A stretch of 64,000 nucleotides of DNA from GCF_057098645.1 NZ_CM169472.1, one strand, 5' to 3'; positions 16,674-20,289 are shown, counted from the first letter of the stretch. The notes: generated from the sequence alone by a model not told the origin. Numbers and translations are program-made.

Positions 16674-17273
16674 TTACCGTAAAGCCCACGCCATCATACT
16701 CAACGTAACAAAACTCAGGCACGTTCCCCACTCACTCCACTTCCGTATCTGGCTTCTATTTTTGCTACGCCACTGGCAATAATATCCCAACGCAAAACCA
16801 AGCTGTGCGCTTATTGGACCGACAAAGTCAATCCACGGTTGAGACCAAAATGGCGAAAAATTCAGTGGGAGCCAGACAACGGTCAGAAAGAAACTGCGCA
16901 TATTTTCCAGCAATGCAATTTTCGCTGGCGCGACATAGAAAATGATATTCCACAGGAGCAACCAGAAATAAACTGGTACAAATACCAGCCAATAATGCAG
17001 TTTGCTTTTCAATTCAGATTGAGTTATGCGAGCAAATTGCCAACCAACGCAACATATGGCGCAGAACAAAAGCGTATATTCAGCCAATAACCCAAGTTGT
17101 AATTCAAGAAGGGATATACGCGCACCATAGGGAGATATAGAAAATAGTAATTCCCCCATAAAAGTCAACGTGGATATAAATATAGCTAAAGCAATCACCG
17201 TCGGCCATACCAACAACGGCACAATAACAAAGCCGAGAATTAGCGGAGAAATATAAAGTCTGATTTTATTCAT
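16674..17273 (-). CDS. uncharacterized polytopic inner-membrane protein (island gene 4)
   Basis: Start placed at MNKIRLYISPL, 2 nt after the upstream stop, with AGGA upstream; about 6 predicted TM helices; no recognisable family. Confidence 0.6.
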   Translation of the reverse strand: MNKIRLYISPLILGFVIVPLLVWPTVIALAIFISTLTFMGELLFSISPYGARISLLELQLGLLAEYTLLFCAICCVGWQFARITQSELKSKLHYWLVFVPVYFWLLLWNIIFYVAPAKIALLENMRSFFLTVVWLPLNFSPFWSQPWIDFVGPISAQLGFALGYYCQWRSKNRSQIRKWSEWGTCLSFVTLSMMAWALR

Positions 17274-17275
17274 CT

Positions 17276-18043
17276 TTATTGTCCTGGTGATTCGGATGAT
17301 CTGTCGTACATGACACATAAACACTCATCAATCATCCACTTGTCTTCCCAGACCTGATACTGTGTGCCCTGTTCGGACTGCTTAAGCGGGTTCTCAATCG
17401 CCTGCCGCGCGCGTTCTTTCAGGATGGATTGATTGTTGTCAGCCCAGGTATTGATTTGGGCGGTAATGGCATTATCGATATCGTCCTGGTTATCTCTGAT
17501 ATAACCTTCACGATACTGGTTCAATAAACAGGCAAGTGAAGCTGCCGACCAAAAGCCGGGAATTGAATTAACGGCATCAAGCAATGGCGCAAGAGCGATA
17601 TCGGCACGGAAAAACATTTCCAGCATATACTGTAATTCGACAGCTTCATCGCCGGATACCCAATCAGTCATATACTGGCAGGCAAATCGCTGTAAAATTG
17701 CCCGTTCATCCGCACGCCAGTTTTCTTTGTTGGCAAGGTTGATACGGCGCAGAGAAAAAACTACGTGAATATTGTCAAAATGCCCCTGTGCAACAAATTC
17801 CAGTAAACGCGGCAGAAAATAGCGGACCTCATCGCTATTTTGCGGATCAGGCTCTGGGCTACTATTCCAGGCATTGATTAAGGAATACGGGATCGCTCGT
17901 AACGATGTACTCCGTAATGCCTTTTGTTCCTGCTGACTCAGGCAATATTCACAACAAACCACAAATTTCTGCGGCACCGGATAACGACGAAAAATATGAT
18001 AAATCTGCTCAATTAATGCCTGCATGGCGGGGCTGGGTTGCAT
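17276..18043 (-). CDS. uncharacterized soluble protein (island gene 3)
   Basis: 255 aa ORF with strong GAGGGGG Shine-Dalgarno, 2 nt after the upstream stop; contains a CCEYC motif; no recognisable family. Confidence 0.6.
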   Translation of the reverse strand: MQPSPAMQALIEQIYHIFRRYPVPQKFVVCCEYCLSQQEQKALRSTSLRAIPYSLINAWNSSPEPDPQNSDEVRYFLPRLLEFVAQGHFDNIHVVFSLRRINLANKENWRADERAILQRFACQYMTDWVSGDEAVELQYMLEMFFRADIALAPLLDAVNSIPGFWSAASLACLLNQYREGYIRDNQDDIDNAITAQINTWADNNQSILKERARQAIENPLKQSEQGTQYQVWEDKWMIDECLCVMYDRSSESPGQ

Positions 18044-18045
18044 AA

Positions 18046-18756
18046 TTACCCCCTCGCCAGCTGATCACGTGTAAACGGTTGATAGACAAAACGAGCATTC
18101 GCCGCGTTCAGGCGAATAAGGGCGCTACGCGAAAGGGAAAAGCTGGGGCGAATGCAACTATTGCAGTCTCGACAGCTTTCCTCTGCGCAATTTTCCACTG
18201 AGTAATGACGCGTGTAGAGTTTCAGTTCGGCCTGCTTATCGCGAAATCCGCGTAAACTGTTATTGTTATGAAATTTCCAGGCATCTTTAAAGACCTGAAA
18301 GATATAGACATCCTCAATCCAGGAGTCACATTTTTTAAGCGGGCGCTTTGCTATTATCACCCGCTCATCCGGATTTAGCATCGCCGTAAATTGTACGGTG
18401 ACGTCATTTGTCGTGTTCAGGTCACATTGAACATCTGGTACATCACTGATATAGGGGTCAAATCCAAAATCAGCACCACAGGCACAAAGACGGCTAATGG
18501 TGGCGGTATCGAGGGAAAATCCCGGCCATACCTTGCTGGACGTTAAGCCAATATTTAATGTGACATCATATCGAAGCAATCCCTCAAGACCGTCAGCACC
18601 GACGAACTTTTCCCCTTCATCCAGGACCTGGTTAATAAGTTGCTGAACAATGCCTTCATCCCAGTATGCCGATTTGCAGTTGGCAATCGTAATATCCACG
18701 CCTGTGAAGGGATCAGTACCGGCAAGGCTTGCAAATAATGTATTAACTAATTCCAT
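18046..18756 (-). CDS. uncharacterized soluble Cys-rich protein (island gene 2)
   Basis: 236 aa ORF with a C-terminal C-x4-C-x2-C-x2-C cluster (CAEESCRDCNSC); 15 nt downstream of gene 1. Confidence 0.6.
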   Translation of the reverse strand: MELVNTLFASLAGTDPFTGVDITIANCKSAYWDEGIVQQLINQVLDEGEKFVGADGLEGLLRYDVTLNIGLTSSKVWPGFSLDTATISRLCACGADFGFDPYISDVPDVQCDLNTTNDVTVQFTAMLNPDERVIIAKRPLKKCDSWIEDVYIFQVFKDAWKFHNNNSLRGFRDKQAELKLYTRHYSVENCAEESCRDCNSCIRPSFSLSRSALIRLNAANARFVYQPFTRDQLARG

Positions 18757-18771
18757 TTTTATTATCCAGCT

Positions 18772-20289
18772 TTAAGGTAGCGTCTTATACATCGGGACAT
18801 AACCTACATCTTCCACCAAACTCTGCCCCTGCGGCGTTAAAAACCATTCCACCAATTTTTGTGTCTCTGACGTCGTATTTTCCCTCGTTACCATAAAGGC
18901 ATCGACGATATAGGGATATTTGCCGTTGCGAATATTTTCCGCAGTCGGTGCAATACCGTTAATCGCTAGCAGTTTTATATTTTTATCGGCGTTCATTTGT
19001 GTTGCGTAATAACGGAAGGTGTAACCTATTGCGTTGTTTGTATTACGATATTCGGCAACGACTTTAATCATTCCCTCCATTACGCTTGCCACTTCGGTTT
19101 CCTGCGGCGAGATCATGCGGACATTTTTCATGACCTGTGATTGCATCACTGTCTGGCTGCCAGAGTCTTCCGGGCGCTGCCAGGTCTGGATCTCCTGATC
19201 GTTACCGCCAACAGTACGCCAATTGGTAATTGCACCACTGAAAATGTCACGCACCTGTTGTTCAGTCAGGGAATTAACCGGATTATCCGCATTGACGATG
19301 AAAACGAATGCTTCACGGGCAAAGGGGGTGTACAGCAAAGTGACACCAGATTCCTTTGCACGTTTTTTTTGCCCACCGGAAGGTTGCGCCACGAAAATAA
19401 TATCAGCATCGCCCTTAACGATTTTGTTATATGCTTCTGGCGTACGAGAGTTTTCCAGATAATCCCAAACGTGAAAATCCTCTGGTATTACACTTAATGC
19501 ATAAAATGCAGAAGCATAAATTGGGTACGCAGCCGTGGCGCCATCGATTCGCGGCCAGTTTTGCCTAAACTGAATTTGCGGTTTGCCACGCAGCGGCGTC
19601 AGTCGATTATTGAGTTTATCGGGTTGCCAGGCCCAGATATCAATATTTTCGCGTACACCGACACCAGGATTGAGCTGTTTATATAAATAACCCTGATAAC
19701 CAGCGACAAAACCAAGCATGAGAAGGATAAACAGGAGGGAATTACGGCAACGTAGCCCGGATGTACCGGTTAAAGGATGTCTGGTTGGCCGGCCGTACCC
19801 CAGCGAAAAACTGATATGCGCGCCAACGGGTATAATGACTATCCACCAGTACTCACCTCCGACTACTGAGACTAACAAAACGCCCAGCCAGGGGAGCATA
19901 AGATCAGCCAACCAACCCGATCCCATCTGGTGAAATTGATAATCTGCCAGATGCAGCGCGATTATCCAGCCAACCAGGATTAATAAAGCGGGTACTAAAA
20001 AAAGACATTGTCGCCAGACGGCTATTTCTCTTTTTTCTGGTGCACTATCGCCTGCCCATACTCGCCCCGAGAAAAATAGCATTAATGCGCCCAGCGCCAG
20101 CATAAAAATGTTGAGCAGAAGGTAAATTGTTGGCGTGATAAGGATATTACAAACTTCAATAATACCGGCAAGTCCGACACCCAGCATAGCAACAACCGCC
20201 GCCAAAAATTGCGTCAGTATGGGGATGCCGAAAAAAGTCATTACCAGCGAGGACAAAATCCATTTTCTGTTTTGCATTATTCTTTCCAT
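18772..20289 (-). CDS. membrane protein fused to a PstS-like periplasmic binding domain (island gene 1)
   Basis: 505 aa ORF: N-terminal ~200 aa with several TM helices, C-terminal region resembling the PstS/PBP-like anion-binding fold; alternative start at 20277. Confidence 0.65.
   Translation of the reverse strand: MERIMQNRKWILSSLVMTFFGIPILTQFLAAVVAMLGVGLAGIIEVCNILITPTIYLLLNIFMLALGALMLFFSGRVWAGDSAPEKREIAVWRQCLFLVPALLILVGWIIALHLADYQFHQMGSGWLADLMLPWLGVLLVSVVGGEYWWIVIIPVGAHISFSLGYGRPTRHPLTGTSGLRCRNSLLFILLMLGFVAGYQGYLYKQLNPGVGVRENIDIWAWQPDKLNNRLTPLRGKPQIQFRQNWPRIDGATAAYPIYASAFYALSVIPEDFHVWDYLENSRTPEAYNKIVKGDADIIFVAQPSGGQKKRAKESGVTLLYTPFAREAFVFIVNADNPVNSLTEQQVRDIFSGAITNWRTVGGNDQEIQTWQRPEDSGSQTVMQSQVMKNVRMISPQETEVASVMEGMIKVVAEYRNTNNAIGYTFRYYATQMNADKNIKLLAINGIAPTAENIRNGKYPYIVDAFMVTRENTTSETQKLVEWFLTPQGQSLVEDVGYVPMYKTLP

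Follow-up and report, generated by a model that had tools for sequence, protein, structure and literature searches.

The locus and its boundaries

What a compact block of four genes lying between glgP and glpD does for the bacterium that carries it is the question raised by positions 16674-20289 of the window analysed here, a 64,000-nucleotide stretch of NZ_CM169472.1 (GCF_057098645.1). Three of the four genes are annotated as hypothetical and the other has only a family-level PstS name, and our literature search turned up no functional study of any of them. The four open reading frames, called g1 to g4 below, follow one another on the minus strand in the order g1-g2-g3-g4 with spacers of 15, 2 and 2 nt; this compact same-strand arrangement, recognized in the initial annotation, was verified, and the genes are probably co-transcribed. 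The block, with a GC content of 0.42-0.49, is AT-richer than the flanking glpD and glgA (0.50-0.57), as had been proposed. On one side it is parted from glgP by an intrinsic terminator (20362-20388, minus strand) whose 9-pair stem closes a 4-nt loop and is followed by 7 T, so the stem-loop reported earlier after glgP does exist (approximately 20388-20362) but makes a reasonably good terminator, not the weak one described. The distal boundary, between the glpD stop and the end of g4, is a BIME-like REP pair (16524-16621) that is real by sequence, as previously claimed. Rfam ES036 matches it at 16545-16587 with 39.3 bits (gathering threshold 37.6) and naRNA4 matches partially at 16591-16627, both being REP-derived Rfam families. 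A candidate -10 element, TATAAT (20307-20312, minus strand), lies 18 nt upstream of the first g1 ATG, with no clear -35 element near it; in a promoter consensus scan, promoter-like sites were no more frequent than in shuffled sequence, and a Pho-box search upstream of g1 gave 0 matches.

Searches of Pfam, NCBIfam, PADLOC and PHROGs revealed no enzymatic, ATPase or permease signature in g1-g4, which agrees with the initial annotation, and none of the four proteins could be assigned to a known pathway, a transporter ATPase or a defence family. What can be recognized in these proteins is a binding domain of a familiar fold, paired with a membrane domain that is not familiar at all.

A PstS-like domain paired with a polytopic membrane domain

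The anchor gene of the locus, g1 (18772-20289, minus strand), is an ORF of 505 aa, or of 502 aa from the RefSeq start at 20280. Its hydropathy profile places hydrophobic segments between residues 10 and 203, delimiting a polytopic membrane domain of approximately residues 1-205, and a PBP_like_2 domain follows at residues 247-485 (PF12849, E 9e-31; window positions 18835-19551), so the architecture first assigned to g1, a membrane domain and then a PstS-like domain, stands. As judged from its sequence, the PstS-like domain is predicted to face the periplasm. RefSeq names the product a PstS family phosphate ABC transporter substrate-binding protein, yet its score against TIGR02136, 124 bits, falls under the curated cut-off of 206.6; by this curated score g1 is not a component of a Pst transporter, and the RefSeq name probably needs correction.

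The C-terminal 260 residues of g1 share the fold family of PstS (PF12849, TIGR02136), with PstS relatives in the PDB reached at E 1e-18. The binding pocket of E. coli PstS comprises T10-type and S38-type residues, D56, and R135 together with S139-G140-T141. An R-x3-SGS stretch of g1 aligns with the phosphate-binding R-x3-SGT of solved PstS proteins, keeping the R-x3-SG(S/T) pattern, and a DGATA motif, whose G-A-T resembles the T10 region of the E. coli protein, is conserved throughout the g1 family; the GSGxG/D56 region is unaligned. Since the pocket motifs of the N-terminal lobe have diverged, the ligand need not be phosphate. Apart from this diverged second motif and the score below the curated cut-off, g1 differs from PstS in the fusion of the domain to a polytopic membrane domain of about 200 residues, in having neither a pstCAB partner nor a Pho box, and in its restriction to a few enterobacterial genera. 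Its orthologues in other genera are 38-54% identical and occupy the same slot. No genus examined was without the fused membrane-plus-binding gene, which often occurs as tandem paralogues and sometimes by itself, and pstCAB-type permease or ATPase genes were absent at the locus in every one of these genera.

At the other end of the block, g4 (16674-17273, minus strand) encodes 199 aa from the RefSeq ATG, its longest ORF beginning at a GTG at 17324 and overlapping g3; by hydropathy it is the polytopic membrane protein of roughly 200 aa that had been described. The g4 family can be aligned with the N-terminal family of g1 by hhalign over 157 columns, nearly all of g4 (probability 93%, E 3.2e-7), and tblastn matches g4 to the membrane domain of a Salmonella-type paralogue (E 5e-5). 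By these profile and sequence matches, g4 is a free-standing homologue of the g1 membrane domain, a kinship not spotted in the initial annotation. Neither Pfam, NCBIfam nor a PDB sequence search yielded a relative of established function for this type of membrane domain. The allele classes of g4 are deep (dS 0.73-0.81), and the allele in the window is a mosaic, 93-100% identical to that of O157:H7 in its 3' half and 70-87% in its 5' half.

In O157:H7, a PstS-like lipoprotein gene stands in place of g2 and g3. This gene, found upstream of g4 in O157:H7 and in Escherichia sp. E1V33, encodes a 330-aa PstS-like protein with a lipobox signal peptide, 58% identical to the binding domain of g1. Its stop codon overlaps the g4 start in O157:H7 (TAATG), and the gap between their tblastn matches in E1V33 is about 20 nt. 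With the lipoprotein gene coupled to g4 in some strains and the two domains fused in g1, binding and membrane domains are linked in both split and fused form; the split form, overlooked in the initial annotation, is a translationally coupled gene pair. The lipoprotein gene is present in 885 genomes, a figure predicted beforehand from the g4 allele classes. Added to the 2,951 genomes with g3, this gives 3,836, compared with 3,829 for g4, a numerical match of totals rather than a per-genome one, and the counts fit two alternative cassettes upstream of g4.

Binding domains tethered or fused to a membrane partner are familiar from the lipoprotein substrate-binding proteins of Gram-positive bacteria, from ABC importers with fused substrate-binding domains, and from secondary transporters that depend on a binding protein, such as TRAP and TTT. 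As in those systems, the binding domain at this locus lies beside, or is fused with, a dedicated membrane protein, both forms coexisting, and a periplasm-facing domain with a lipoprotein paralogue recalls Gram-positive PstS. Unlike the ABC, TRAP and TTT permeases, the g1/g4 membrane domain is unrelated to them by Pfam, NCBIfam and PDB sequence comparison, is much smaller and has no ATPase.

The two soluble proteins

The product of g2 (18046-18756, minus strand) is a soluble protein of 236 aa, free of hydrophobic segments, with two tandem ferredoxin-like repeats. Alignment of its N-terminal half to its C-terminal half confirmed the internal repeat (probability 84%, E 7.7e-6). No Pfam model matched any of 11 orthologues, DUF4279 (PF14106) not being reached at E<=0.1, and one orthologue has only a "faint" precomputed DUF4279 match. 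The AF2 model (pLDDT 66 overall, approximately 88 for residues 1-100), on the other hand, has Foldseek matches to DUF4279 proteins at E of about 1e-8 to 1e-4 (4e-8 to 3e-4 against several of them); these, two-domain members included, are the best non-orthologous matches. Going by this model, g2 is a ferredoxin-like protein with an internal duplication, and its resemblance to DUF4279 is confined to the fold. A "YbbD family" label on g2 appears to derive from a chimeric model. Unlike DUF4279/FdL-Imm5 proteins (PMC9424270), g2 has no PF14106 sequence match and no neighbouring toxin, is tandemly duplicated, carries a Cys-rich insertion and is linked exclusively to the membrane-plus-binding gene, its homologues having been found only at this locus in Enterobacteriaceae, beside that gene.

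The insertion is the cluster C190-x4-C195-x2-C198-x2-C201 (residues 190-201, NCAEESCRDCNSC), situated in a loop of the second repeat with pLDDT below 50. C195, C198 and C201 are kept in approximately 90% of orthologues, C190 is not conserved, and one orthologue has none of the four. A role for g2 as a metal or Fe-S partner is not supported, the cluster being confined to a low-confidence inserted loop and missing from one orthologue; the cysteine motifs initially reported in g2 and g3 are present, but their reading as two metal or Fe-S partner proteins is doubtful.

The third gene, g3 (17276-18043, minus strand), encodes a soluble, all-helical, HEAT/ARM-like protein of 255 aa, again without hydrophobic segments, with CCEYC at residues 30-34. 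Its AF2 model has 12 helices (pLDDT 66), and Foldseek matches it to proteins of about 250 aa with no assigned function from several phyla. The likeness to HEAT/ARM/TOG alpha-solenoids and to DUF1186 is generic to the fold, and the g3 family has its own signature, consisting of a vC-x2-3-CC cysteine motif, YFLPRxLEL and W200. At E<=1e-3 this family takes in 789 representative clusters, and Pfam has no model for it, none of 27 members having given a Pfam match. Among these 27 distant members C30 and C34 are nearly invariant, conserved cysteines being found at the N-terminus only.

An old chromosomal locus under erosion

Among 5,426 complete E. coli genomes, g1 is present in 3,347, g2 in 2,325, g3 in 2,951 and g4 in 3,829, and all four are found together in 1,715. 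These per-gene counts substantiate the variable locus proposed initially, and they speak against the single four-component system proposed with it, as the genes come and go independently. At least part of the locus is retained in approximately 70% of the genomes, EHEC and ExPEC included, and since approximately 29%, K-12 among them, are without most of it, the locus is dispensable. K-12-type genomes have only yzgL in the slot. The first approximately 230 nt of g1, encoding its membrane N-terminus, and the last 60 nt of g4 make up this gene, which is a deletion/fusion scar joining the 5' end of g1 to the 3' end of g4; yzgL is thus a remnant of the locus, as had been stated, though not a periplasmic-binding-protein fragment.

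The slot between glgP and glpD is occupied by the locus in Escherichia, Salmonella, Pseudocitrobacter, Klebsiella spallanzanii and Intestinirhabdus, always in single copy and always between these two genes, and it was never found on true plasmids. Because this position is taken by one and the same gene family in five enterobacterial genera or more, without exception on the chromosome, the locus is ancestral and has been repeatedly eroded: it is an old, decaying chromosomal locus restricted to Enterobacteriaceae. The earlier description of the block as inserted between glpD and glgP is therefore abandoned. A genomic island or mobile insertion was likewise rejected, given the fixed single-copy site, the lack of true-plasmid copies, and the absence at the locus of an integrase, a transposase or other mobile-element marks.

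Adjacency of g1 and g2 is maintained in Escherichia, Salmonella, Pseudocitrobacter and Klebsiella spallanzanii. Elsewhere the block is taken apart in several ways: the auf fimbrial operon can replace g1, leaving g2-g4 intact and under purifying selection, g2 has been deleted singly in some genomes, and others retain g1 only. Since g2-g4 are intact where auf has replaced g1, and g1 stands alone elsewhere, g2 and g3 are independent of the binding domain of g1. Between E. coli alleles, dN/dS is 0.11-0.17 for g1, 0.12-0.17 for g2 and 0.16-0.35 for g3, and 0.11-0.44 across all four genes with dS up to 0.8, which marks g1-g4 as genuine genes and implies long-term purifying selection on them.

Possible function and alternative explanations

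The interpretation we favour, tentatively and as somewhat short of probable, is a tethered oxyanion-binding and membrane module with a swappable cytoplasmic cassette. Its core would be the PstS-like binding domain, tethered to the membrane and paired with a dedicated, undescribed polytopic membrane domain, the two being fused in g1 and, in other strains, split between the lipoprotein and the free-standing membrane domain g4 to which it is coupled. On the periplasmic side of the inner membrane, the tethered domain would capture a phosphate-like anion and would then dock on the membrane domain, and the latter may relay either ligand or signal across the bilayer with no ABC ATPase involved. With their predicted non-enzymatic folds of the protein-binding type, g2 (duplicated ferredoxin-like) and g3 (a HEAT-like solenoid) would form a co-transcribed, exchangeable cytoplasmic cassette that may regulate the membrane domain from the cytoplasmic side or work apart from it.

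The main rival to this tethered module is an islet of orphan immunity genes, in which g2, g3 and possibly g4 would each bind a competitor's toxin (Rhs, CDI or T6SS) downstream of an unrelated membrane gene; we regard it as unlikely, if well worth weighing. The fold of g2 matches DUF4279, a family catalogued among immunity proteins under the name FdL-Imm5 (PMC9424270), with a predicted role in Salmonella as immunity partner to an Rhs-Ntox33 effector (PMC13304343). The position after g2 is occupied in Salmonella by a YbbD-family gene, of which only short remnants are found there in Klebsiella spallanzanii, and the YbbD gene of K-12 directly follows the orphan Rhs C-terminal fragment ylbH, a classic immunity position. 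The g3 family is patchy across phyla, with relatives that occur as tandem divergent paralogues (42% identity), in small arrays of uncharacterised genes together with ankyrin and pentapeptide-repeat proteins, or between carA and carB. Independent presence and absence of the genes, deep allelic lineages and low GC would also be expected of such an islet. However, no toxin gene adjoins g3-family members in 9 contexts (of 789 clusters) or g2 in any context examined, the ferredoxin-like fold is very common and 0 of the 11 g2 orthologues reach Pfam DUF4279, and PADLOC and NCBIfam are without matches. The confinement of g2 to the side of the membrane-plus-binding gene would be unusual for an immunity family, and g1 and its homology to g4 are left unexplained.

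The frequency of decay, seen in yzgL, in many truncated g1 products and in the remnants of g2 and g3 that several Escherichia species carry through deletions, frameshifts and fragmentation, could also mean that the locus is a once functional relic in the course of being lost, whose remaining ORFs now do little or nothing for E. coli. This is improbable in view of the long-term purifying selection and of the intact copies in most E. coli genomes and several genera. We consider still less probable an obligate four-component system, in which g1 as an anion sensor would signal via g2 and g3 as metal or Fe-S proteins and the membrane protein g4. The tight spacing, the fixed gene order, the maintained g1-g2 adjacency and the near-invariant C30 and C34 of g3 fit such a system; intact variants lacking g1, g2, or both g2 and g3 are common, fewer than a third of the genomes have the full set, the g2 cysteine cluster sits in an inserted loop and is absent from one orthologue, and g3-family members also occur in unrelated contexts without g1, g2 or g4, all of which argue against it. 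Least likely by our estimate is a role in defence against phages or in ordinary phosphate uptake as part of a Pst-type ABC importer, as a variable, AT-rich locus of uncharacterised genes and the RefSeq name of g1 might suggest, for 0 of the 4 proteins match PADLOC-DB v2 models, the PHROGs matches are limited to the PstS-like domain of g1 and a marginal one for g2 (E 0.006, a family without assigned function), inheritance is vertical in a fixed slot without mobile-element marks, and g1 scores below the TIGR02136 cut-off, has a membrane domain instead of a signal peptide and has no pstCAB-type permease or ATPase nearby.

Significance

If an orphan-immunity role is confirmed for g2 and g3, or the locus is no more than decay, the finding would be an ordinary one. 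The association of a binding domain with a membrane domain of no known family, and with no ABC partner, hints at an undescribed use of binding proteins at the inner membrane of E. coli and its relatives. In its boldest form, which we think rather unlikely, the tethered module would represent a new class of binding-protein-dependent, ATPase-independent transporter or sensor for a phosphate-like anion, with g2 and g3 coupling the device to physiology. The presence of g3 in E. coli offers a tractable entry to a family that spans many phyla without a Pfam model, and if the ATPase-independent device is real, g3 would give functional work on this family of at least 789 clusters its first foothold.

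Organization and Borders of the Block

Between glgP and glpD, four closely packed minus-strand ORFs separated by 15, 2 and 2 nt are present, as the initial annotation had described: g1 (18772-20289, 505 aa; RefSeq start at 20280), g2 (18046-18756, 236 aa), g3 (17276-18043, 255 aa) and g4 (16674-17273, 199 aa). Read as its longest ORF, g4 would open at 17324 with a GTG and share 49 nt with g3, but the ATG at 17273, which is the RefSeq choice and yields the 2-nt spacer, is the more likely start. RefSeq labels g1 as a PstS-family protein and g2, g3 and g4 as hypothetical. The block is AT-richer than its flanks, as had been noticed (GC 0.42-0.49 vs. 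0.50-0.57), and the Cys motifs quoted for g2 and g3 are confirmed. The stem-loop and T-run after glgP, initially described as weak, correspond in the sequence to a glgP terminator on the minus strand (20388-20362), whose 9-pair stem precedes 7 consecutive T; a TATAAT then stands upstream of g1 (20312-20307, minus strand). At the other border, the REP pair after glpD lies downstream of g4 (16524-16621). Rfam matches this pair to the ES036/CssrF sRNA on the minus strand (16545-16587; 39.3 bits against a gathering score of 37.6) and partially to naRNA4 on the plus strand (16591-16627), both REP-derived RNA families, and since the Rfam search gave no match beyond such families a regulatory RNA reading was dropped. 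The idea of Pho regulation was likewise abandoned after a search for a Pho box found none, and a scan of the block for internal promoters and terminators gave none above chance.

An Ancestral and Variable Slot

The locus had been proposed to be inserted; it is instead ancestral, as a g1 homologue occupies the glgP-glpD slot in every genus examined. The slot is filled in Salmonella enterica (L005), in a second Salmonella-like contig (L006) and in Pseudocitrobacter (L007), and tblastn mapped it in Escherichia whittamii, E. albertii, other Escherichia, Pseudocitrobacter vendiensis, Klebsiella spallanzanii and Intestinirhabdus alba. The latter species were found by scanning 100,044 species genomes with an alignment of the g1 membrane domain and a single peptide pattern; this non-exhaustive scan returned Enterobacteriaceae only and missed Salmonella despite its carrying the gene, so that the spread of the family is a lower bound. 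An equally non-exhaustive word-index search with the same domain returned mainly truncated E. coli products. In E. coli each of the four genes is single-copy and chromosomal, and none was found on true plasmids, the sole "plasmid" match being a 4.8-Mb record; on this ground and because the chromosomal slot is fixed, a mobile island was rejected. An extra gene of 174-176 aa stands between glgP and the g1 homologue in Pseudocitrobacter (L007 5205-5735) and in the Salmonella-like contig (L006 4249-4773). The former product has a signal-peptide-like N-terminus and matched nothing in Pfam, NCBIfam or PHROGs, and the latter is without a precomputed Pfam match.

The locus also varies widely across E. 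coli, in agreement with the earlier expectation. Among 5,426 complete genomes, at a coverage of at least 80%, g1 is found in 3,347, g2 in 2,325, g3 in 2,951 and g4 in 3,829, and the whole block in just 1,715. The window from 16400 to 20420 is ~100% identical to E. coli O145:H28 RM12761. The K-12 remnant yzgL does lie at this position, as had been noted: it is all that K-12-type genomes retain, an internal deletion scar in which the initial ~230 nt of g1 are joined to the final 60 nt of g4.

A Binding Domain and Its Membrane Partner

The proposed architecture of g1, an N-terminal membrane domain fused to a PstS-like domain, is upheld by both hydropathy and homology. The hydrophobic segments lie within residues 10-203, with K/R-rich loops at ~75-93 and 166-182, and residues 247-485 form a PBP_like_2 domain (E 9e-31). 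This domain is related to solved PstS proteins (E 1e-18), with RPEDSGS aligned to their R-x3-SGT phosphate-binding motif. No Pfam or NCBIfam model matched g4, and neither the membrane domain nor g2 nor g3 had a relative in a PDB sequence search. The g4 family aligns with the g1 membrane-domain family end-to-end and in register over 157 columns (hhalign probability 93%, E 3.2e-7), tblastn matches g4 to the membrane domain of a Salmonella-type paralogue (E 5e-5), and the two families have in common the motif P-[VI]-[GS]-x-[QH]-[LI]-x-F-x-L-G-Y with a basic loop after it.

In O157:H7 (L039) g2 and g3 are missing and a PstS-like gene sits between g1 and g4, an order repeated in Escherichia sp. E1V33 (L027). 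The O157:H7 gene encodes a 330-aa product, 58% identical to the g1 binding domain, with the signal peptide of a lipoprotein (MNKFTGVLLLGTALLAGC), and ends in a stop codon that overlaps the g4 start (TAATG). A PstS-like domain is thus found together with a g4-type membrane domain in two arrangements, fused in one and encoded by coupled neighbouring genes in the other, which is a classic signature of functional partnership, and we regard this partnership as well supported. The lipoprotein form independently shows a predicted export of the binding domain.

The deep g4 alleles in E. coli fall into at least three classes (~95-100%, 86% and 77% nucleotide identity; dS ~0.8 between classes). As 918 genomes belong to the 80-90% identity class, ~900 genomes with the lipoprotein gene were predicted beforehand, and the search found 885. 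In terms of totals only, these 885 and the 2,951 genomes with g3 make 3,836, near the 3,829 with g4, a match consistent with two cassettes that alternate at the position upstream of g4. The g4 of the window is itself a mosaic that shares 93-100% identity with the O157 allele in the 3' half and 70-87% in the 5' half, with a breakpoint near mid-gene; this pattern suggests that the cassette was swapped by recombination inside g4.

Our best, though tentative, reading is that the core of the locus pairs an oxyanion-binding domain, tethered at the membrane, with a membrane domain dedicated to it, and that g2 and g3 make up a cytoplasmic cassette open to exchange. The binding domain would work together with its membrane partner, an oxyanion being the putative ligand and transport or sensing the putative function; any role assigned to g2 and g3 is conjectural.

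The Proposed Cassette Genes and the Immunity Question

The main rival, which we consider rather unlikely, is that g2 and g3 are orphan immunity genes. It draws on the fold of g2, whose AF2 model (pLDDT 66 overall, ~88 for residues 1-100) consists of two alike beta-beta-alpha-alpha-beta-beta-alpha-beta units; hhalign relates the N- and C-terminal halves at E 7.7e-6, with WPGFSLD..ISRL aligned to RPSFSLS..LIRL. The second unit carries the Cys cluster as an insertion, within a loop whose pLDDT falls below 50, and one orthologue is devoid of the cluster. Orthologues aside, DUF4279 proteins dominate the Foldseek matches (E 4e-8 to 3e-4), although no Pfam family matched any of 11 g2 orthologues. DUF4279 has been classed as immunity family FdL-Imm5 (PMC9424270) and as the predicted immunity partner of an Rhs-Ntox33 effector (PMC13304343). 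Tandem paralogy, patchy distribution and deep alleles also favor orphan immunity, as does the YbbD-family gene in the Salmonella slot, given that ylbH, an orphan Rhs fragment, precedes ybbD in K-12. Against it, g2 is tied exclusively to this locus: in a search of 5.8 billion proteins all named sources of its homologues were Escherichia, Shigella or Salmonella, and every g2 contig looked up carries the gene in the glgP-glpD slot. Moreover, toxin linkage was seen in none of the contexts examined, those of the g3 relatives included.

The YbbD name that some RefSeq records give to g2 itself is an artefact. NF007301 (PRK09781, 181 aa) matches only g2 residues 7-49, at model positions 6-48, and by tblastn nothing in the rhsD-ybbD region of K-12 resembles g2. 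The 139-aa Salmonella neighbour (L005 8702-9121) matches model positions 44-181 with 318 bits, and because the matches split in this way, the model appears to have been built from a chimeric ORF joining the g2 N-terminus to a YbbD-like protein. In the K-12 rhsD region (L010 5950-7131), ylbH comprises the end of an RHS core and a C-terminal extension; the pseudogene ybbD, which resembles the Salmonella 139-aa protein, overlaps its end, the usual position of an immunity gene.

For g3, a profile search of 1.84 billion representatives recovered 789 clusters at E<=1e-3, of which 165 also pass E<=1e-10. Full-length members are mostly stand-alone proteins of ~240-270 aa. The family is marked by Y15, F18, C30, C34, P78, R79 (YFLPRxLEL), E113, F120 and W200, and Foldseek likewise returned ~250-aa unknowns from Bacteroidota, Deinococcus, Actinobacteria and Planctomycetes. 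Their contexts are heterogeneous. An enterobacterial locus flanked by aldo-keto reductase and ampC-like genes holds two tandem g3 paralogues with 42% identity (L011 8001-9586); in L033-L036 (e.g., L034 290-2913) a small insertion between carA and carB comprises a family member and unknown genes of 220, 105 and 124 aa, with pentapeptide repeats in the 124-aa product. On Deinococcus megaplasmids, relatives stand within arrays of small hypothetical genes, and others adjoin ankyrin- and pentapeptide-repeat genes, WGR-DUF4132 giants or an oxidoreductase.

Selection, Modularity and Remaining Alternatives

That the locus is a decaying relic is very unlikely, being contradicted by the purifying selection acting on all four genes: dN/dS is 0.11-0.17 for g1, 0.12-0.17 for g2, 0.16-0.35 for g3 and 0.21-0.44 for g4 (0.02-0.09 for glpD). 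Synonymous sites have diverged unusually far, dS reaching 0.38 in g1-g3 and 0.73-0.81 when g4 allele classes are compared; for glpD it is 0.04-0.21.

The obligate four-part sensor of the initial annotation is a shade less probable still, as modularity contradicts such a unitary system. The genes come and go separately, and intact variants include g1-g3-g4 with g2 deleted, g1 by itself (L025), two g1 paralogues by themselves in Intestinirhabdus (L031), g1 and g2 with the YbbD-family gene in Salmonella, and g1, g2 and g3 without g4 in Pseudocitrobacter. In ExPEC-type strains such as E. coli CUVET18-565 (L002 10220-17375), a seven-gene chaperone-usher fimbrial operon replaces g1, of which a 22-aa C-terminal remnant is left beside intact g2-g4; this operon is auf (GR24), placed in the glpD..glgP region by PMC12928451.

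Least probable of all is that the block serves in anti-phage defence or supplies a standard Pst component; the family tests contradict both, in line with the earlier view: PADLOC matched none of g1-g4 and PHROGs only the PstS-like domain of g1 and, marginally, g2 to a family of unknown function, on which grounds defence was dropped, and g1 scores 124 bits against the 206.6-bit cut-off of TIGR02136 and has no pstCAB neighbours.

The feature is real and uncharacterised. By homology, it combines a predicted substrate-binding domain with a new membrane partner to which that domain is tethered, and g3 belongs to a large family for which Pfam offers no model, with 0 of 27 diverse members matched.
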